This document shows, in pieces, positions 7,437 to 14,478 of a stretch of 14,478 nucleotides of DNA. Made by a program: the position numbers and the translations under genes. Position 1 is the stretch's first letter; every line of letters begins with the position of its first letter. The notes below the pieces were generated by a model. It made no database searches. It had not been told where the DNA came from and saw only the letters and a program-made list of their open reading frames with translations. Source of the DNA: a virus. Its lineage: Duplodnaviria > Heunggongvirae > Uroviricota > Caudoviricetes. The stretch covers positions 1-14,478 of IMG/VR virus record IMGVR_UViG_2713896899_000013. One strand, 5' to 3'.

Positions 7437-7996
7437 GCGTTAGTTTCTCCACAGTCACGACACGCCACGGCGCCCGGAGCTGCACACTCGCGGGCGTCAT
7501 TACTTTCTGAAATGCAAAAAATTTTGTAGACCAGTGCAGCATGCTCCTGCAGCTTCGAAATTGAGAGGTACAGCTCGTCGTTAATTGCTGTCTTCTCATG
7601 CGGTTCCACCACACCGTCTTCGATTGCAGAACGAATCTGTTTTGAATAACTGCCGATCTGTTCAATGACTTCCAGCAGACGCTGGTTAACATCGGCATTG
7701 TCCACATCCTCGACGTCAGGAAGAGACACAAAGACGCCATTTGCAGACTGCGCCACAGCATCAGCAATGAAGTGAGTGCCACCAGCACGCTGTAAAACCA
7801 TTGCCCATCCCAGCGGAAAAATCTGATCGCCATCTGCACGAAGGCGGTTGAATAAAGCGTTCTCTGTTACATCCAGCCAGTCAGCCGCTTCAGCGTAACC
7901 ACCCGGCAACGCCGCGATAGTTTTTCTGACAGCTTTCACGTACCACTCAGGCTGTTTTTCTATTTTCCAGTGATGCTTACCCACGATTAGCCTCAT
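7433..7996 (-). CDS. CII-like / YdaT-like regulatory protein
   Basis: Position immediately downstream of cro in the pR operon; 187 aa with a C-terminal Cys cluster; family assignment is from memory of prophage 'regulatory protein CII' (YdaT-like) proteins and is uncertain. Confidence 0.45.
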
Positions 7997-8027
7997 CGTT
8001 CTGTGGTTAAAAATTGAAAGTGTTCTG

Positions 8028-8228
8028 CTAATCTTTCGGATAGATATCCGGTCTTAAGTCAGATTTCGTAATTGCACCTGACGTGCATTGCTCAAGTTTT
8101 TTAGCCAGCACAAAACTGGCTTTTTTATAGCCATTGAAAACCAGCCGTAAGTAGCCAGGTGTTGAGCCAACTTTTCCGGCCAACTCGCCCTGCTGTTCTT
8201 TGGTTAAAGAGTCCCAATACGCTTTCAT
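8028..8228 (-). CDS. cro: Cro-like HTH regulator (YdaS/DUF1019-type), 66 aa
   Basis: MKAYWDSLTKEQQGELAGKVGSTPGYLRLVFNGYKK...ITKSDLRPDIYP; divergent from cI across an operator region; GGAGGT Shine-Dalgarno 9 nt upstream of the ATG at 8228. The track ORF 8028-8531 is an upstream extension through the operator region. Confidence 0.75.
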   Translation of the reverse strand: MKAYWDSLTKEQQGELAGKVGSTPGYLRLVFNGYKKASFVLAKKLEQCTSGAITKSDLRPDIYPKD

Positions 8229-8318
8229 ACAATATGTACCTCCGGTGTACATATTACATGATTGAAATGAACCTTCAAGATACTTGTACCTTAACGGTAC
8301 AAGGGTTTTAATTTCGTT
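8229..8318. promoter_or_regulatory. Divergent pR/pRM-like control region with two 19-bp operators (core TGTAC-N7-GTACA)
   Basis: Operators ATGTACCTCCGGTGTACAT (8234-8252) and TTGTACCTTAACGGTACAA (8284-8302). Minus-strand promoter: -35 TTGAAG (8278-8273), 16-nt spacer, -10 TAATAT (8256-8251). Plus-strand promoter: -35 TTGTAC (8284-8289), 17-nt spacer, -10 TTTAAT (8307-8312), start near the A of the cI ATG, implying a leaderless cI mRNA. Confidence 0.6.
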
Positions 8319-8993
8319 ATGAAAACAATCCATGACATCCGGCGGTCTAACGCCAGAAAACTGAGAGATGGTGTTGGCGGGAATTCTTCCTTTGCCACTA
8401 TGATTGATCGCGAGCCAACCCAGACCAGCAGGTTTATGGGAGATGGTGCTACTAAAAATATCGGTGACAGCATGGCACGACACATCGAAAAATGTTTCGA
8501 CCTGCCTGTCGGATGGCTCGATCAAGAACACCAGACAACGAACATCACAAAAAAACCTGATGTTTCAATCACTAATAAACAAATCACATTAGTCCCTGTC
8601 ATATCATGGGTACAGGCCGGAGCATGGAAAGAAGTTGGATATTCTGAGGTTGATTTGAGCACAGCAGAAACGTATCCCTGCCCTGTACCCTGTGGGGAAA
8701 TGACTTATATCTTGCGGGTGATAGGTGATTCAATGATTGATGAGTACCGCCCGGGAGACATGATTTTTGTCGATCCTGAAGTACCTGCCTGCCACGGTGA
8801 CGACGTTATTGCATTGATGCACGATACAGGTGAAACCACCTTCAAAAGGTTGATAGAAGATGGGACACAGCGTTATCTCAAAGCGTTAAACCCAAACTGG
8901 CCTGAGCCTTACATTAAGATCAACGGTAATTGCTCTATAATTGGAACTGTGATTTTCTCAGGAAAACCAAGAAGATACAAAATCAAAGCCTAA
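8319..8993 (+). CDS. cI: CI-type prophage repressor (HTH plus S24 LexA-like peptidase domain)
   Basis: C-terminal VIGDSM...GD...FKRL pattern of the S24 self-cleaving domain; divergent from cro; no Shine-Dalgarno, consistent with a leaderless transcript. Confidence 0.85.
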   Translation: MKTIHDIRRSNARKLRDGVGGNSSFATMIDREPTQTSRFMGDGATKNIGDSMARHIEKCFDLPVGWLDQEHQTTNITKKPDVSITNKQITLVPVISWVQAGAWKEVGYSEVDLSTAETYPCPVPCGEMTYILRVIGDSMIDEYRPGDMIFVDPEVPACHGDDVIALMHDTGETTFKRLIEDGTQRYLKALNPNWPEPYIKINGNCSIIGTVIFSGKPRRYKIKA

Positions 8994-9005
8994 TCAATGT
9001 TTATG

Positions 9006-9029
9006 AACCTGCTTCGGCAGGTTTTTTTA
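9006..9029 (+). terminator. Intrinsic terminator after cI
   Basis: Stem AACCTGC / GCAGGTT with loop TTCG, followed by TTTTTTT. Confidence 0.65.
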
Positions 9030-9032
9030 TAC

Positions 9033-9078
9033 TTGACAATGTACCCATGAGATACATAATGTACCCAAGAGAAACAAC
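9033..9078 (+). promoter_or_regulatory. pL-like promoter overlapped by operators of the same family as those at pR/pRM
   Basis: -35 TTGACA (9033-9038), 16-nt spacer, -10 CATAAT (9055-9060); operator ATGTACCCATGAGATACAT (9039-9057) has the same 19-bp TGTAC-N7 architecture; a degenerate second copy lies at 9058-9076. Confidence 0.55.
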
Positions 9079-9145
9079 AAACAGGCAGGACGCCCACGAA
9101 GTAGCCGCCAGGGGCATATGAAGTCCTGGATGATTCGTTAGTAAC

Positions 9146-9170
9146 AAAAAAAGCGTCGTACAGGACGCTT
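9146..9170 (-). terminator. Intrinsic terminator of the minus-strand secreted-protein gene
   Basis: Minus-strand reading: stem AAGCGTC / GACGCTT followed by TTTTTTTG. Confidence 0.6.
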
Positions 9171-9183
9171 CGCTCTTTAACAA
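9171..9183 (+). promoter_or_regulatory. boxA-like element (CGCTCTTTAACAA) directly after a hairpin, about 105 nt downstream of the pL-like start
   Basis: 12 of 13 match to the rrn boxA consensus TGCTCTTTAACAA and contains the lambda boxA core CGCTCTT; hairpin-then-boxA order as in rrn leaders. Confidence 0.4.
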
Positions 9184-9193
9184 TCTGGATGAC

Positions 9194-9709
9194 TTATCGG
9201 TCAGATTTAAACTGGGGTTCTGGCAAAACTGGTGGTGTTGAATCTTCAAATCGTAACCAGTGTTCCCAAATATCATGTGTTCGTAATTTCTGTAGACTAA
9301 TTTGACGCGATGCAATTGCGGAATTAGTGGTTACTCCACCAGAAGCATCGCCCTCTACTGACGTTGAGGCTTTTTCTACTAATTCTGACCAAGCTTCACT
9401 TTCTGCGTCAAAAGCTTCTGTTAAGTCCCGCAGACGCTGTGGCTCATTTTTATGGTCTTCCTTCAAACGATTCAAAGCGGCAGTTGAATACTTATTCCTG
9501 ACCCATTCGATCTGAGTTAGCTGAATCCGCAGACAATTATCTATATCAATGGTTGTGTTCTGAGGCATGTCAGAACAAGAAATATAAAAGGTCACAACTC
9601 CACCGTTCAAACTACTGCCCGGTTCGATTAAAACATTAGAGGAATTTGACGTAGTCGGCAATATTAATGCTAACGACAAAACCACATGTTTAACAGAAAT
9701 CGCACCCAT
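9194..9709 (-). CDS. Small secreted/periplasmic protein (171 aa), possibly LprI/DUF1311-like; gene lies antisense to the pL direction
   Basis: AGAGGG Shine-Dalgarno upstream of the ATG at 9709; N-terminal hydrophobic signal-like segment VVLSLALIL; own terminator; the family guess is weak. Confidence 0.55.
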   Translation of the reverse strand: MGAISVKHVVLSLALILPTTSNSSNVLIEPGSSLNGGVVTFYISCSDMPQNTTIDIDNCLRIQLTQIEWVRNKYSTAALNRLKEDHKNEPQRLRDLTEAFDAESEAWSELVEKASTSVEGDASGGVTTNSAIASRQISLQKLRTHDIWEHWLRFEDSTPPVLPEPQFKSDR

Positions 9710-10040
9710 TTAAATTGCCCTCTTAAGAACAAGGTCATCCAGATTAACCGAAACCTGGTTATTGGGGAATAACCAAATCCACCTCGCCTGATGTGGCTAA
9801 AAGCAGGCACATAACAGCTAAGTATTTTCAACCAGAGAGAATCCTTAGCGTTGTGGTGAATGCGGCTCAGCGCACGCGGGTTAAGGTTGAGGCTGACAGT
9901 CGACCTTCTGTGGATACCCACCCGTCTGGTGTGCAACCTTCGCCAGGCACCGGGAGGCACCCGGCACCACAACTTTATGCTGTGTGTAGTCTTGGGGGTA
10001 CCAGTTTGTACCCTTGCTTCCGGCTGGTACCGTCCTTTTT

Positions 10041-10129
10041 ACAAAACAGAGAAGAGCATCACCGGACGACGGGCTCATAACCCAATCCATCCGGGCGGCT
10101 GCCACCGCAGGTGTTCTTCTCTGTTTTGT
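10041..10129. repeat. Perfect 15-bp inverted repeat (ACAAAACAGAGAAGA / TCTTCTCTGTTTTGT) flanking a 59-bp GC-rich segment
   Basis: Read directly; arms at 10041-10055 and 10115-10129; lies in a non-coding, hairpin-rich stretch immediately upstream of the yfdP-like gene. Confidence 0.8.
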
Positions 10130-10177
10130 GGAGAAACCAACTGGCCTTGCAGGGTCGATATGATGAGGAGCAGCAAA

Positions 10178-10540
10178 ATGGCTAGCGAACGCAGTACTGA
10201 TGTGCAGGCATTTATCGGGGAGCTGGACGGCGGCGTATTTGAAACCAAAATCGGCGCAGTTCTCAGTGAAGTCGCTTCCGGTGTGATGAACACGAAAACC
10301 AAAGGTAAGGTCTCACTCAACCTGGAAATCGAACCATTTGATGAGAACCGTGTGAAAATCAAACACAAACTCTCATATGTTCGCCCGACTAACCGCGGGA
10401 AAATTTCCGAAGAAGACACCACCGAAACGCCGATGTATGTCAATCGCGGTGGTCGCCTGACTATTCTGCAGGAAGACCAGGGACAATTACTAACTCTTGC
10501 CGGTGAACCTGACGGAAAACTCCGCGCAGCAGGTCATTAA
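10178..10540 (+). CDS. YfdP-like hypothetical protein (120 aa)
   Basis: GAGGAG 7 nt upstream of the ATG at 10178; size and position upstream of the YfdQ-like gene match the CPS-53 yfdP-yfdQ arrangement as I recall it. The track ORF 9860-10540 is a non-coding upstream extension. Confidence 0.6.
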   Translation: MASERSTDVQAFIGELDGGVFETKIGAVLSEVASGVMNTKTKGKVSLNLEIEPFDENRVKIKHKLSYVRPTNRGKISEEDTTETPMYVNRGGRLTILQEDQGQLLTLAGEPDGKLRAAGH

Positions 10541-10605
10541 TATCGTTCTTAATTAACTGATTATTTATCTCATCACTGAATATCTTTATATAGTGAGGAC
10601 TTATT

Positions 10606-11430
10606 ATGTCTCAGAACTTAGACGCAACCGCAATTAATCAAATCCATGCCCTTATTTCTGCTCAGGGTGTTAATGAAATTATCAGTAAGATTGGTGCCGA
10701 TGCTGTGGCATTGCCTGAGAATTTCCGCATTCATGATCTGGAAAAATTTAATTTAAATCGCTTCCGTTTCCGTGGTGCGCTTTCCACTGCCAGCATCGAT
10801 GACTTTACCCATTATTCCAAAGATCTTGCAGATGAAGGCACCCGCTGCTTTATCGATGCTGATAATATGCGTGCTGTCAGTGTGCTTAATCTGGGTACTA
10901 TTGATGAACCAGGTCACGCAGATAACACCGCCACTCTCAAACTGAAAAAGACAGCACCGTTCTCTGCACTGTTGTCTGTTAACGGCGAGCGTAACTCCCA
11001 GAAGTCACTGGCAGAATGGATTGAAGACTGGGCCGACTACCTTGTGGGCTTTGATGCTAATGGTGACACCATTCAGGCAACCAAAGCGGCTGCGGCGATC
11101 CGTAAAATCACGATTGAAGCAAACCAGACCGCTGATTTTGAAGATAATGACTTCAGCGGCAAACGCTCCCTGATGGAGTCTGTCGAAGCGAAGACCAAAG
11201 ACATTATGCCAGTGGCATTTGAATTTAAATGCGTTCCGTTTGAAGGCCTGAAAGAACGTCCGTTTAAATTACGCCTCAGCATTATCACTGGCGATCGTCC
11301 GGTACTGGTTCTGCGCATTATTCAGCTGGAAGCGGTGCAGGAGGAAATGGCTAACGAATTTCGTGATCTGCTTGTTGAGAAATTCAAAGACAGCAAAGTA
11401 GAAACCTTTATTGGTACTTTCACCGCCTGA
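10606..11430 (+). CDS. yfdQ: YfdQ-like protein (DUF2303 family), 274 aa
   Basis: GAGGA Shine-Dalgarno; length identical to E. coli K-12 YfdQ and the same gene order with the HD-domain gene; the assignment is from memory, not a search. Confidence 0.7.
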
Positions 11431-11445
11431 TTTCATTACTGCAAA

Positions 11446-11470
11446 TGCCCCTGCGGGGGCATTTATGGAA
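11446..11470 (+). terminator. Terminator-like hairpin after the yfdQ-like gene
   Basis: AAATGCCCC tgcg GGGGCATTT, 9-bp stem; the following U-tract is weak (TTTATGG). Confidence 0.4.
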
Positions 11471-11557
11471 ACATAATTTACTCAATAATCGCCGGATGGT
11501 GAGGGCTTCCTTTTACCCGAATTCAGCGCGGTGCAGCGCATATACGTGGAGAACAAA

Positions 11558-12094
11558 ATGTCATTTATTAAAACTTTTTCCGGGAAGCATTTTTATTATG
11601 ACAAGATAAATAAAGACGACATCGATATTAACGATATCGCGGTTTCCCTTTCAAATATCTGTCGCTTTGCAGGACATCTTTCACACTTCTACAGCGTCGC
11701 CCAACATGCGGTGCTTTGCAGCCAGCTGGTACCGCAGGAATTTGCTTTTGAAGCGTTAATGCATGATGCAACAGAAGCTTATTGTCAGGACATCCCCGCG
11801 CCACTGAAACGCCTTCTTCCTGACTATAAACAGATGGAAGAAAAAATAGACGCCGTGATCCGTGAGAAATACGGGTTACCCCCGGTGATGAGCACGCCCG
11901 TGAAATATGTCGATCTCATCATGCTGGCAACCGAACGCCGCGATCTCGGGCTTGATGATGGCTCTTTCTGGCCTGTACTGGAAGGAATCCCGGCAACAGA
12001 GATGTTCAACGTGATTCCACTGGCACCGGGCCATGCCTACGGGATGTTTATAGAACGCTTCAACGAGTTATCGGAGTTACGCAAATGCGCATGA
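11558..12094 (+). CDS. yfdR: HD-domain phosphohydrolase (YfdR-like 5'-deoxynucleotidase), 178 aa
   Basis: H...HD metal-binding motif (VAQHAVL ... ALMHDATEAY); GGAGAA 5 nt upstream of the ATG at 11558; the track's 11531 start is an upstream GTG. Confidence 0.8.
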   Translation: MSFIKTFSGKHFYYDKINKDDIDINDIAVSLSNICRFAGHLSHFYSVAQHAVLCSQLVPQEFAFEALMHDATEAYCQDIPAPLKRLLPDYKQMEEKIDAVIREKYGLPPVMSTPVKYVDLIMLATERRDLGLDDGSFWPVLEGIPATEMFNVIPLAPGHAYGMFIERFNELSELRKCA

Positions 12095-12447
12095 ATGTCT
12101 TCGAAATGGAAGGGTTTCTTCGCGGGAAATGTGTACCGCGAGATCTGAAAGTGAATGAAACGGATGCTGAATACCTGGTACGTAAATTCGATGCGCTTGA
12201 AGCTAAATGTGCAGCACAGGAAAACAAAGTAATACCTGTGTCAGCTGAACTGCCGCCAGCAAATGAAAATGTTCTGTTATTTGATGCTAATGGAGAAGGC
12301 TGGCTGATTGGCTGGCGTTCTCTCTGGTACACATGGGGGCAAAAAGAAACCGGAGAATGGCAGTGGACATTTCAGGTCGGGGACCTTGAAAACGTCAATA
12401 TCACTCACTGGGCAGTAATGCCGAAAGCACCGGAGACTAAGAAATGA
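12085..12447 (+). CDS. yfdS: YfdS-like protein (DUF551 family), 120 aa
   Basis: GGAG 8 nt upstream of the ATG; overlaps the yfdR-like 3' end by 10 nt; size matches K-12 YfdS. Confidence 0.7.
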   Translation: MRMNVFEMEGFLRGKCVPRDLKVNETDAEYLVRKFDALEAKCAAQENKVIPVSAELPPANENVLLFDANGEGWLIGWRSLWYTWGQKETGEWQWTFQVGDLENVNITHWAVMPKAPETKK

Positions 12448-12650
12448 GCGTGATAAAAACTCATACAGTAATTGTTATCACCCGAGACGGTGAAAAGCGG
12501 ATGAAACTACATTCCACTGAAACGTCCTGGGTTGCTGGACGTTGTGAATCCTACGACAAAAAGACTGGTTACCGTTGGGGTGCGCCAAACATGCGTCGCC
12601 GTCTGCTCCTGGACAGCATCAGGCCAATTAAACAGGTAGCAACCAGATAA
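12444..12650 (+). CDS. Small hypothetical protein (68 aa), translationally coupled to the yfdS-like gene
   Basis: ATGA start/stop overlap; GGAGA 7 nt upstream of the ATG. Confidence 0.55.
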   Translation: MSVIKTHTVIVITRDGEKRMKLHSTETSWVAGRCESYDKKTGYRWGAPNMRRRLLLDSIRPIKQVATR

Positions 12651-12718
12651 CAAAATTAATTATCAGGACTGAAATTTGATATTACTGCCCGTGTGCAGCG
12701 GGCTAAGTGGAGAAACAT

Positions 12719-12925
12719 ATGCTGAACCTCGATTGTGTTCCTATCTCAACTTATTGCAAAGAAACTGGCGAAACTCCTGAAGCAATAAACAAACGTGTAC
12801 AGCGCGGTGTTTGGCGTGAAGGTGTTCAGGTTTTAAAGGTTGAAGGCGTTAAGGAGAGGTGGATTGATCTTAGTGAGGTTGCAAAATGGGCCAGACAAAA
12901 CTGCTCAAACTACCGCGCGGCGTAA
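12719..12925 (+). CDS. xis: Excisionase-like small DNA-binding protein
   Basis: Small basic protein directly upstream of, and overlapping, the integrase gene, as lambda xis does with int; GGAGAA upstream of the ATG at 12719 (the track's 12707 is a GTG). Confidence 0.6.
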   Translation: MLNLDCVPISTYCKETGETPEAINKRVQRGVWREGVQVLKVEGVKERWIDLSEVAKWARQNCSNYRAA

Positions 12926-14064
12926 CAATCAGGAAACACCGCCAGGGCGAAACGATCAATATAACTTTCACCTACAAAGGAGTTAAATGTCGTGAGCCTC
13001 TTTCCAATCTGGAAGTAACACCAAAGAACATTAAATACGCCGAGCGCACACTCGGCGAAATTCATAATAAGATCGAAAGGGGAACATTCATTTATGCGGA
13101 ATATTTTCCCCGTTCTGCTCGTTTGAAAATTTTTGGTAATGCTGCTGCAGGCAAAACGGTAAAAATGTACCTGGACGAATACCTTGAAATCTGCGAAACG
13201 AGAAAACTTTCACCATCTACGATTGGTGGCTATAAAAAATGCCGTAGTGCGTTAGCCTCACTCCACATTTGCCCTGCAAGTGAATTAACACCAGCAATCC
13301 TGAAAGCGTGGATTCAAAGCCAGAAAACGACCTTAAAAACAATTCGCAACCAGTTATCTTTCCTGCGGTCAGCACTTGATGAAGCCGTAACCGATGGGGT
13401 ACTTCAAATTAACCCCGTATCGTTGGTAACTGCTTCGCGCTACCAAAGTGATAAGTCAGAAGCAGAAAGCAGCTACGTGGTTGATCCGCTATCACCAGCA
13501 GAAGTTGATGCATTACTAGCGGCTGCTGGAAATAAACAATGGGAGAATCTGTTCCGGTTCGCCATACATACAGGCCTGCGTAGTTCTGAATTATGTGCCC
13601 TTCGATGGCGTGATATCGACTTTGTTGGAAAAACTGCCCATGTCCAGAGCGCAAGTGTTGTCGGTGTTATCAAAGGGACAAAGACAAAAGCCGGTACTCG
13701 TAAAGTTGAACTGACAGAAGAGGCAATGTTGGCGCTGATAAATCAGAAGCCATTTACATTCATGAAGGATGCTACTGTCTTTGAAGATCCAAAGACCAAT
13801 AAGCCTTGGGCAAGTGCTGATGCAATTAGGAAAAAAGCATGGGTGCCAATATTGCGAAAAGCAGGTATTCGTTACAGAAACCCATATCAGACCAGGCATA
13901 CATTCGCCACCAGCCATATCAGCCGAGGGGCAAACCTGTTTTGGCTTTCAGTTCAAATGGGGCATAAAGGGCCGGAGATGCTTTTCAGGCACTATGGTCG
14001 ATATTTGAAAGACTATGATGGAAATACAGAACACAAGCCTAAGCTGGTCAGTGGTAAGACATAA
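12886..14064 (+). CDS. int: Tyrosine recombinase / phage integrase (392 aa)
   Basis: C-terminal catalytic region with conserved R (GLRSSE), H-x-x-R (QTRHTFAT) and the terminal H...Y (HKGPEMLFRHYGRY) pattern; sits next to the att core. Confidence 0.9.
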   Translation: MGQTKLLKLPRGVTIRKHRQGETINITFTYKGVKCREPLSNLEVTPKNIKYAERTLGEIHNKIERGTFIYAEYFPRSARLKIFGNAAAGKTVKMYLDEYLEICETRKLSPSTIGGYKKCRSALASLHICPASELTPAILKAWIQSQKTTLKTIRNQLSFLRSALDEAVTDGVLQINPVSLVTASRYQSDKSEAESSYVVDPLSPAEVDALLAAAGNKQWENLFRFAIHTGLRSSELCALRWRDIDFVGKTAHVQSASVVGVIKGTKTKAGTRKVELTEEAMLALINQKPFTFMKDATVFEDPKTNKPWASADAIRKKAWVPILRKAGIRYRNPYQTRHTFATSHISRGANLFWLSVQMGHKGPEMLFRHYGRYLKDYDGNTEHKPKLVSGKT

Positions 14065-14137
14065 AAGGAGCCGCAAAAGATCCGCATAATAAAATGATTA
14101 GTATTAATCGTTTTATTTCAGCTAATTATAAAAATAC

Positions 14138-14169
14138 GGACTCGGGTTCAACTCCCGCCAGCTCCACCA
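14138..14169 (+). other. ssrA: Attachment-site core: copy of the last ~32 nt of ssrA (tmRNA) ending in CCA, with one mismatch; not a complete tmRNA gene
   Basis: GGACTCGGGTTCAACTCCCGCCAGCTCCACCA versus the E. coli tmRNA 3' end GGACGCGGGTTCAACTCCCGCCAGCTCCACCA (recalled); the sequence upstream is the int gene, so the 5' 330 nt of ssrA are absent here. Confidence 0.8.
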
Positions 14170-14214
14170 AAATTCTCCATCGGTGATTACCAGAGTCATC
14201 CGATGAAGTCCTAA

Positions 14215-14248
14215 GAGCCCGCACGGCGCAAGCCCTGCGGGCTTTTTT
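14215..14248 (+). terminator. Intrinsic terminator downstream of the ssrA fragment (likely the native ssrA terminator)
   Basis: Stem GCCCGCA / TGCGGGC followed by TTTTTT. Confidence 0.7.
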
Positions 14249-14317
14249 GTACCCTCAATTTGTCCCGCGAAGTCCGAAGAGAACTAATTAAATCCGAACC
14301 TTTTAGGCCCATTGATA

Positions 14318-14352
14318 GGCCCAACGAAAAGCTCTATTGTTTTCGTTGGGCC
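14318..14352. promoter_or_regulatory. Perfect 13-bp palindrome upstream of the second integrase
   Basis: GGCCCAACGAAAA (14318-14330) and TTTTCGTTGGGCC (14340-14352) around a 9-nt loop, plus a direct repeat AGGCCCA at 14305 and 14317; no U-tract, so it is more likely a binding site or 5' UTR structure than a terminator. Confidence 0.4.
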
Positions 14353-14372
14353 TAAACGCATGGAGACTCCCC

Positions 14373-14478
14373 ATGGCAAGAAAAACCAAGCCGTTAACCG
14401 ATACGGAAATCAAAGCCGCCAAACCTAAAGATGCCGATTACCAGCTGTATGATGGTGAAGTGGTCAACAAAAACTGGC
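14373..14478 (+). CDS. 5' end of a second tyrosine integrase, P4 / CP4-57 IntA-like (partial; runs off the window)
   Basis: MARKTKPLTDTEIKAAKPKDADYQLYDG matches the N-terminal arm-binding motif of P4-family integrases; GGAG 7 nt upstream; located after the ssrA 3' end as intA is in E. coli K-12. Confidence 0.7.
   Translation, partial: MARKTKPLTDTEIKAAKPKDADYQLYDGEVVNKNW

Follow-up and report, generated by a model that had tools for sequence, protein, structure and literature searches.

The yfdPQRS genes of a lambdoid prophage lie in its early-left operon behind a conserved, probably structured leader RNA

We analyzed a 14,478-nt stretch of a Caudoviricetes prophage (IMG/VR record IMGVR_UViG_2713896899_000013, positions 1 to 14,478; hereafter the window) and find that four consecutive genes, yfdP, yfdQ, yfdR and yfdS, and a coupled 68-aa open reading frame (ORF) occupy the early-left position of a lambda-like immunity, early and integration region, whose orientation is opposite to that of the usual lambda map. 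On the reading that we favor by a little, the module is early-left (pL) cargo of a lambdoid prophage of the SfV/ST64B/LLS type integrated at ssrA, and serves as an early, transient brake on the initiation of host replication; of this module, the CPS-53 element of E. coli K-12 retains no more than a remnant that lacks a promoter. The finding holds up but is ordinary, in that the gene set and its place were both known: the module, its early-left placement in lambdoid phages and the idea of host takeover are already published. The unrecorded items are confined to a conserved leader RNA ahead of yfdP and an rrn-type boxA upstream of it, a modest new lead that is worth a short follow-up.

The gene module and its promoter

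The module proteins were compared by BLASTP with those of the CPS-53 genes of K-12 MG1655, translated from the RefSeq record. The initial annotation had matched the four genes to their K-12 namesakes by size and order, and the comparison bears this out: YfdP is 99.2%, YfdQ 98.9% and YfdR 97.2% identical over the full length, YfdS is 95.8% identical over residues 1-118 of 120, and the DNA is 96.8% identical across 10159-12438. The coordinates and sizes given there for the five ORFs were exact (Table 1); the program-made ORF for yfdR opens at an upstream GTG (11531) and not at the ATG. There is a 10-nt overlap between yfdR and yfdS, and the 68-aa ORF is, as had been noted, predicted to be translationally coupled to yfdS, its ATG sharing bases with the yfdS stop codon (ATGA). 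YfdT gives no significant BLASTP match to this ORF (best E 7.4). YfdQ matches Pfam DUF2303 (PF10065) over residues 7-272 (E 1e-92; 310.5 bits against a gathering score of 26.6), YfdS matches DUF551 (PF04448) over residues 50-117 by a small margin (23.5 bits, cut-off 22), and the Pfam HD_3 and YfbR-like scores of YfdR fall slightly under their cut-offs. PHROGs places the five proteins in phrog_204 (YfdP, E 1e-49), phrog_210, phrog_318 (YfdR), phrog_583 (YfdS) and phrog_1226 (68-aa ORF). Additionally, YfdP is assigned to PF27127 by precomputed annotation, and YfdR matches the HD protein of PDB 2gz4 (E 4e-14). A hairpin read from the sequence in the yfdQ-yfdR spacer, which is 127 nt long in the window and of equal length in K-12, could be an mRNA stabilizer or a partial stop, and might set different levels of YfdP and YfdQ relative to the products of the downstream genes.

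Control of the module by pL, as the initial annotation had it, is supported by the sequence. An operator lies within the spacer of a pL-like promoter and is one of three sites in the window that match TGTAC-N7-GTACA with at most one mismatch (0.18 expected), the other two being in the spacer between cI and cro. On the plus strand from 9100 to the end of int, no further promoter-like site was found. The phage is also, as had been supposed, more complete than CPS-53, given that cI, pL and the leader are present here and lost in K-12. The K-12 cluster yfdP-yfdQ-yfdR-yfdS-yfdT has the four genes in the order and sizes of the window, but its homology to the window begins only 19 nt before the yfdP ATG. 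There, a deletion fused the ori iterons of a truncated O gene beside yfdP, and TCAGATTTTGA repeats form the yfdO/yfdP spacer (9248-9604 of the K-12 locus). The host stationary-phase regulator SrsR controls yfdPQ in K-12 (PMC9181523); judged from the repeats, the K-12 “SrsR boxes” are these iterons of the phage origin, which the deletion moved beside yfdP. The two elements differ again after yfdS, where K-12 has yfdT, torI and argW-type integration and the window has the 68-aa ORF, a different xis/int pair and an ssrA fragment.

The same early-left arrangement as in the window (cI, terminator, pL, leader, yfdP, yfdQ, yfdR, other genes, xis, int) is present in the Shigella phage SfV (orf32-orf28), the Salmonella phage ST64B (sb37-sb35) and the E. 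coli phage LLS (gp39-gp37). Window positions 8983-9139 are 98.7% identical to the segment of SfV that covers the end of cI and pL, and 9779-10187 match the SfV sequence that precedes orf32 (yfdP) at 97% identity. The cassettes differ, with orf33 in SfV and an inverted 171-aa gene in the window, and SfV lacks the boxA segment that the window has. The downstream accessory genes vary as well, being yfdS and yfdT in SfV and other genes in ST64B.

Distribution and the conserved unit

By megablast, 3032 of 5426 complete E. coli genomes contain the module, and 2032 of these match at least 80% of its length. What is conserved within it was examined in two surveys, a close one of 80 IMG/VR loci with ~99% identical YfdQ, and one of 80 loci from different GTDB species that were found via YfdP, 78 of them untruncated. 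YfdP and YfdQ are each present in all 80 of the close loci, YfdR in 78, YfdS in 48, YfdT in 31 and the 68-aa ORF in 16. Across species, YfdP is followed by YfdQ in 78 of 78 untruncated loci, with YfdR next in 57 and YfdS in 5. The conserved unit is therefore an invariant YfdP-YfdQ pair with YfdR as a frequent partner, and yfdS, yfdT and the 68-aa ORF are mosaic. The initial annotation described a four-gene module; the four genes and their order are indeed present, but as a set they are not the conserved unit, since YfdS is accessory. Nor is the conserved pair the yfdQRST set that was studied in K-12, where YfdP was dropped as dispensable.

Farther relatives keep the YfdP-YfdQ pair without YfdR. 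For instance, the gene order in an Endozoicomonadaceae prophage is HTH repressor, ERF, YqaJ exonuclease, YfdP, YfdQ and single-stranded DNA-binding protein (SSB); a Pseudomonadales prophage has a deoxynucleoside monophosphate (dNMP) kinase upstream of YfdP-YfdQ in the same operon; and Xanthomonas CP2-like phages carry YfdP (32% identical) and YfdQ, with a recombinase, an exonuclease and SSB a few genes later. DUF2303 comprises 1798 clusters at 50% identity among 1.84 billion representatives, and among the matches listed nearly all are 264-288 aa long and none is a fusion, save a few truncated fragments. YfdQ occurs in 181 phage records and YfdR-like HD proteins in 324; virulent and jumbo phages that infect Caulobacter, Bacillus and Stenotrophomonas are among the 324.

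A conserved leader RNA ahead of yfdP

Between pL and yfdP lies an RNA element that is well supported and unannotated. Just upstream of the yfdP Shine-Dalgarno sequence, the transcript very probably folds into a three-way junction, in which an outer helix closes around two hairpins, one with near-invariant loops and the other of variable length. In 26 sequences from different species, evaluated by RNAalifold and pair counts, the junction pairing holds in 97.2% of cells as compared with 42-55% in slid controls, compensatory changes occur in 14 of 40 pairs as compared with 3-6, and none of 500 shuffles matches the observed values. A trimmed covariance model of 110 positions (R1) matches the plus strand just 5' of yfdP in about 50 of the 78 species loci and in SfV and ST64B, and has no match in K-12, HK022 or the Xanthomonas phage. 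No Rfam family matches the junction segment. Judged by the early region of HK022 rather than by the put sequence itself, a put-like RNA of the HK022 kind was considered and rejected; the core motif of the leader is absent from that region, where R1 also finds nothing. An in-frame ORF runs from 9860 into yfdP, and older annotations have a longer YfdP, but the leader is not coding sequence, because the indels of the variable hairpin (14 versus 16 nt) are not multiples of three and because the substitutions form compensatory pairs rather than third-position changes.

The 5' strand of the outer helix opens with the U run of a terminator, T1. Of 31 leaders of different species, 28 have a stem-loop with a U run after it, and the stems differ and yet are complementary. 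The segment that ends in T1 may be a relative of STnc100, but we do not assign it to that family (RF02076): it scores 36.9 bits against a gathering score of 47, and the segments upstream of yfdP in SfV and ST64B score 39.5 and 35.1.

Farther upstream, directly after a hairpin, the leader contains an exact rrn-type boxA, GCTCTTTAACAA. This 12-mer occurs in 22 of 166 loci, in genera including Mangrovibacter, Kosakonia, Sodalis and Izhakiella, and 21 of the occurrences are on the plus strand 1.0-1.5 kb upstream of yfdP; by our own arithmetic, about 0.24 would be expected by chance over all 166 loci. The sequence 3' of boxA varies among loci, with a cassette breakpoint directly after it. In the window, this variable slot between two conserved leader segments holds the 171-aa gene as an antisense insert, whose terminator hairpin is also the hairpin before boxA; the gene is present in 1 of the 80 close loci, and others carry other cassettes.

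Two known leaders bear on this arrangement. The pL leader of lambda (nutL boxA/boxB, an RNase III-sensitive hairpin, then N) likewise places a boxA early in a long operon under repressor control, with an extended duplex directly ahead of the first gene. In contrast to lambda, the stretch from pL to yfdP contains no N-like or arginine-rich ORF, whether in the window or in two related loci inspected, and no boxB is recognizable in the window, so that of the lambda-type N/nut elements boxA alone is present. The internal loops of the junction are also highly conserved, a feature for which a plain RNase III site would have no need, and RNase III cleavage and dependence on Nus factors are putative here. 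In rrn leaders, a boxB hairpin is followed by boxA and then boxC. The order of hairpin then boxA and the exact GCTCTTTAACAA are those of rrn leaders.

It is conceivable, though doubtful, that the ~150 nt comprising T1, the junction and the hairpin at the Shine-Dalgarno sequence work as a responsive regulatory switch and not as a passive processing or stability element. Such a switch may belong to a class of phage cis-regulatory RNA not described before, gating a replication-inhibiting operon; its input could be a protein (for example, feedback by YfdP or YfdQ), a nucleotide-related ligand or RNase III, and it may act together with the rrn-type boxA, which would give the pL transcript protection independent of N.

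A proposed brake on host initiation

The experimental evidence on function comes from K-12. Noguchi and Katayama isolated yfdQRST in 2016 as a multicopy suppressor of hda-185, and found that suppression requires yfdQ, yfdR and either yfdS or yfdT, with yfdP not needed (PMC4776307). Multicopy yfdQRS or yfdQRT inhibits initiation at oriC in the wild type and in several over-initiation mutants, and YfdR contacts DnaA domain I via Phe46, competing with DiaA and DnaB (PMC4776307). The YfdR-DnaA result is still cited in the same form in 2025 (eLife; PMC12122000), and the initial annotation, which had mentioned both the DnaA binding and the inhibition on overexpression, was right on both. The yfdQ, yfdR and yfdS set that is sufficient in K-12 is complete in the window, and the window YfdR differs from that of K-12 by five substitutions (V23D, R92Q, A118V, M164I and D169E). 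From the 97.2% identity and the full gene set, we infer that the window YfdR may also be a DnaA-binding inhibitor of initiation. Lambda P and B. subtilis SirA are, like YfdR, mobile-element or developmental proteins that contact DnaA and block initiation; SirA and YfdR both use the Phe46/Phe49 patch of domain I (PMC4776307), whereas lambda P binds domain III. YfdR differs from both in that it is an HD phosphohydrolase with no sequence relation to either and needs YfdQ and YfdS or YfdT in vivo.

Based on these data, we propose the following course of events. In the lysogen, the LexA-like cI would keep pL shut. Loss of the repressor would start transcription from about 9067, and the transcript would pass the rrn-type boxA leader and the untranslated cassette and meet T1; on read-through, the three-way junction would form, and yfdP, yfdQ, yfdR, yfdS, the 68-aa ORF, xis and int would then be transcribed. 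The boxA would recruit Nus factors that shield the long, partly antisense and untranslated pL transcript from Rho, T1 would limit the flow into the operon, and the junction would be a site of RNase III action or of stabilization, comparable to the hairpin that precedes lambda N, or else a protein- or ligand-responsive element. YfdR would bind DnaA domain I and, with YfdQ and YfdS or YfdT, lower initiation at oriC as the K-12 overexpression data suggest, and such a transient brake on induction or infection would free DnaB and precursors for the phage replicon. The phage replicon would have to borrow DnaB, because its early-right operon, which is complete in the window, encodes a single O-like initiator and neither a helicase nor a helicase loader. 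YfdP and YfdQ, as an older unit of obligate partners, would form large assemblies and act as an accessory in DNA transactions. Since the HD catalytic center is intact, nucleotide hydrolysis is probably part of the job of YfdR.

This proposal is not new in outline. The authors of the 2016 study proposed a role for the genes in growth of the ancestral phage, likened it to that of lambda P and cited the SfV homologues (PMC4776307). The host-takeover function that the initial annotation suggested is therefore neither novel nor established, given that it extrapolates from overexpression in K-12. Its other suggestion, an exclusion function, finds no counterpart in our searches: PADLOC has no match for any module protein, and we see no exclusion or defense signature.

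Several points count against a brake on host initiation. Every functional datum comes from multicopy expression in K-12, where deletion of yfdQRST is without an initiation phenotype, where YfdP is dispensable for the phenotype, and where the effect may, as its authors concede, be an artefact of overexpression (PMC4776307). DnaA binding is not the general role of the YfdR family, because its 324 phage records include hosts far from E. coli. Expression driven by pL needs read-through, because T1 lies between pL and yfdP. Lastly, neither YfdQ nor YfdP has an informative fold match in the fold libraries, which do not include PDB 9O7M. K-12, the host of all the experiments, carries a decapitated copy without the natural promoter, boxA, terminator and leader. 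Given that K-12 lacks the natural leader region, physiological expression and purpose are better pursued with SfV, ST64B, LLS, the phage of the window or another intact one.

The entry 9O7M (“YfdQ Protein”) contains 36 chains of one sequence, which matches the window YfdQ at E 1.5e-44 and is 98.8% identical to a DUF2303 protein of Xanthomonas phage MET23-P3 (4532-5786 of the phage locus). The statement of the initial annotation that YfdQ is undefined holds for function, although the structure of a homologue has by now been solved. We found no paper that mentions the entry, and a search of the PDB with the Xanthomonas YfdP homologue gave no match. The example chain of 9O7M is “C”, so a second molecule, perhaps DNA, may account for chains A and B.

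Alternative functions

It is possible, if rather unlikely, that the module manipulates nucleotide pools or signals, with YfdR dephosphorylating dNMPs or a modified or signaling nucleotide so as to steer precursor pools or blunt a nucleotide-based host defense, and with DnaA binding incidental. The metal-binding residues of the H...HD...D motif are present in YfdR (H50, H69, D70 and D119), and they are invariant, together with R36, E73 and D78, among 51 species homologues, which argues that the HD active site is under selection. The breadth of the family in phage records, virulent phages included, points the same way, as do the PHROGs name of the YfdR family (deoxyribonucleoside 5'-monophosphate phosphatase) and the dNMP kinase in the YfdP-YfdQ operon of the Pseudomonadales prophage. 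K-12 YfdR is a phosphohydrolase with a nucleotide affinity far below that of YfbR (Zimmerman 2008, as cited in PMC4776307), and this low affinity leaves room for a different true substrate. E. coli YfbR shares the H...HD...D site for metal binding as well as the E/D residues that follow HD, and it aligns weakly with YfdR across the HD region (PDB 2paq), but YfdR is reported to bind nucleotides with much lower affinity. YfdR scores 20.5 bits on the NCBIfam model for YfbR-type 5'-deoxynucleotidases (NF003009), where the cut-off is 122, and so is not a YfbR orthologue; its RefSeq name, 5'-deoxynucleotidase, derives from K-12 biochemistry and not from this model. However, no substrate of YfdR is known and defense and anti-defense models have no match, and nucleotide manipulation leaves unexplained both the need for yfdQ with yfdS or yfdT and the DnaA contact through Phe46.

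A third explanation starts from what the region lacks. Zheng, Casjens et al. (Genome Res 2025; PMC12315714) describe lambdoid phages that have no recombination (Rec) module and high Chi, with LLS, ST64B and phiNP as examples; SfV is of the same class. The window, in the 14.5 kb of prophage that it makes visible, fits this LLS-type class, because all ORFs from pL to int were scanned and none resembles a recombinase or annealing protein, an exonuclease, a RecBCD inhibitor (Gam/Abc2) or SSB, and because Chi (GCTGGTGG) is enriched 18-fold (8 sites in 14,478 bp, where 0.44 would be expected, with at most 3 in 200 shuffles). The Chi sites span 2837-13914, six of the eight on the minus strand and none within yfdPQRS. 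The initial annotation had the module “in place of” the recombination genes. That is accurate as to position but not as to function, because ArgO145 carries the cluster along with a full Rec module, and the authors judge a hidden recombination function unlikely (PMC12315714).

We accordingly regard it as improbable that YfdP-YfdQ, with or without YfdR and YfdS, form an unrecognized system for recombination or DNA-end handling that replaces Red or Erf. The occupied Rec position in the window does suggest such a system, and distant phages place YfdP-YfdQ between ERF/exonuclease and SSB or just upstream of recombinase, exonuclease and SSB. Like annealing proteins, YfdQ forms a many-subunit assembly (9O7M); its deletion weakly sensitizes K-12 to methyl methanesulfonate and H2O2 (PMC4776307), and its overproduction makes a K-12 strain release its resident phage (preprint 10.1101/413146). 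On the other hand, the Rec module beside the cluster in ArgO145 has all four functions, and the cluster is not universal in Rec-less phages (PMC12315714). That class compensates by Chi and host RecBCD, as the eight Chi sites suggest for the window as well, and fold comparisons show no similarity of the module proteins to Rad52/Redbeta/Erf, RecA-like, Gam or Ku proteins.

Finally, stress-tolerance cargo of benefit to the lysogen, expressed in the prophage state rather than in lytic growth, is very improbable: K-12 deletions of CPS-53, yfdQ or yfdS raise sensitivity to H2O2 or acid (Wang 2010, as cited in PMC4776307) and SrsR regulates yfdPQ in stationary phase (PMC9181523), but the K-12 SrsR boxes correspond to iterons that in the window lie 3.4 kb away in the O-like gene, the module sits behind a terminator downstream of the repressor-controlled pL with no promoter-like site of its own, and the genes of low G+C content that run on a strand of their own are located elsewhere (9194-9709 and 304-2080).

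Features of the prophage region

On the minus strand, the window includes the whole early-right operon, and the iterons inside its O-like gene are the probable origin of replication. At the other end, the 3' end of ssrA beside int apparently marks the attachment site (Table 1).

Table 1. Coordinates of features in the window.
Feature	Position	Strand	Remarks
Q	2118-2477	-	
108-aa protein	4680-5006	-	nin-like region; LexA DNA-binding domain only, without peptidase domain
PerC-like activator, Dam, RusA, KilA-N, DUF968/HNH	early-right operon	-	
O-like initiator	6147-7088	-	phrog_391
Iterons TCAGATTTTGA	6652-6785		15-bp spacing; inside O-like gene
112-aa unknown	after cII-like gene	-	
cII-like gene	7433-7996	-	
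cro-like gene	8028-8228	-	
cI	8319-8993	+	S24 peptidase, LexA-like
cI terminator	9005-9024	+	
pL-like promoter	9033-9060	+	TTGACA, 16 nt, CATAAT; 11/12 match to sigma-70 consensus
Operator TGTACCCATGAGATACA	9040-9056	+	within spacer of pL-like promoter
Hairpin CCAGG(N12)CCTGG	9108-9129	+	compensatory swaps in relatives (CCTGG/CCAGG, CCTTG/CCAAG)
Hairpin AAGCGTC(N6)GACGCTT	9151-9170	+	
rrn-type boxA GCTCTTTAACAA	9172-9183	+	exact; single match in window
171-aa gene	9194-9709	-	phrog_7681; weak LprI-like (lysozyme inhibitor) match; signal-peptide-like N-terminus
STnc100-like RNA segment	9820-10043	+	ends in T1; RF02076, 36.9 bits
Terminator T1	9994-10040	+	stem GGGGGTACCAG / CTGGTACCGTCC, then TTTTT
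yfdP leader RNA, putative three-way junction	10034-10136	+	~23-bp outer helix around two hairpins
Small hairpin	10143-10156	+	consensus helix 6; compensatory changes
Shine-Dalgarno sequence GAGGAG	10165-10170	+	ahead of yfdP
yfdP	10178-10540	+	120 aa
yfdQ	10606-11430	+	274 aa; DUF2303
Hairpin AAATGCCCC(TGCG)GGGGCATTT	11443-11464	+	9-bp, G+C-rich, without U run; yfdQ-yfdR spacer
yfdR	11558-12094	+	178 aa from ATG; HD-domain phosphohydrolase
yfdS	12085-12447	+	120 aa; DUF551 at C-terminus
68-aa ORF	12444-12650	+	coupled to yfdS; phrog_1226, function unknown; not YfdT
xis, then int	12707-14064	+	int 12886-14064
tmRNA (ssrA) 3' end	14067-14169	+	directly after int; with terminator to 14248

An Rfam “IsrM” match near 14067-14248 was discarded as merely the ssrA terminator. 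SfV (2226-2414 of its locus) and ST64B (2409-2597) have a C4 antisense RNA and isrK, which are P1/P7-type immunity RNAs, in their early-right regions, and the window has no match to either. Just past Q, opposite to the late operon, the plus strand carries two genes of low G+C content (31-44%) at 304-852 and 1196-2080, one for a DUF2441 protein, the other for a protein of 294 aa whose C-terminus is ion-channel-like. Complete E. coli genomes have no match to this part of the window, and PADLOC has none for these two genes or for the 171-aa gene. The two plus-strand genes may be defense or exclusion cargo.

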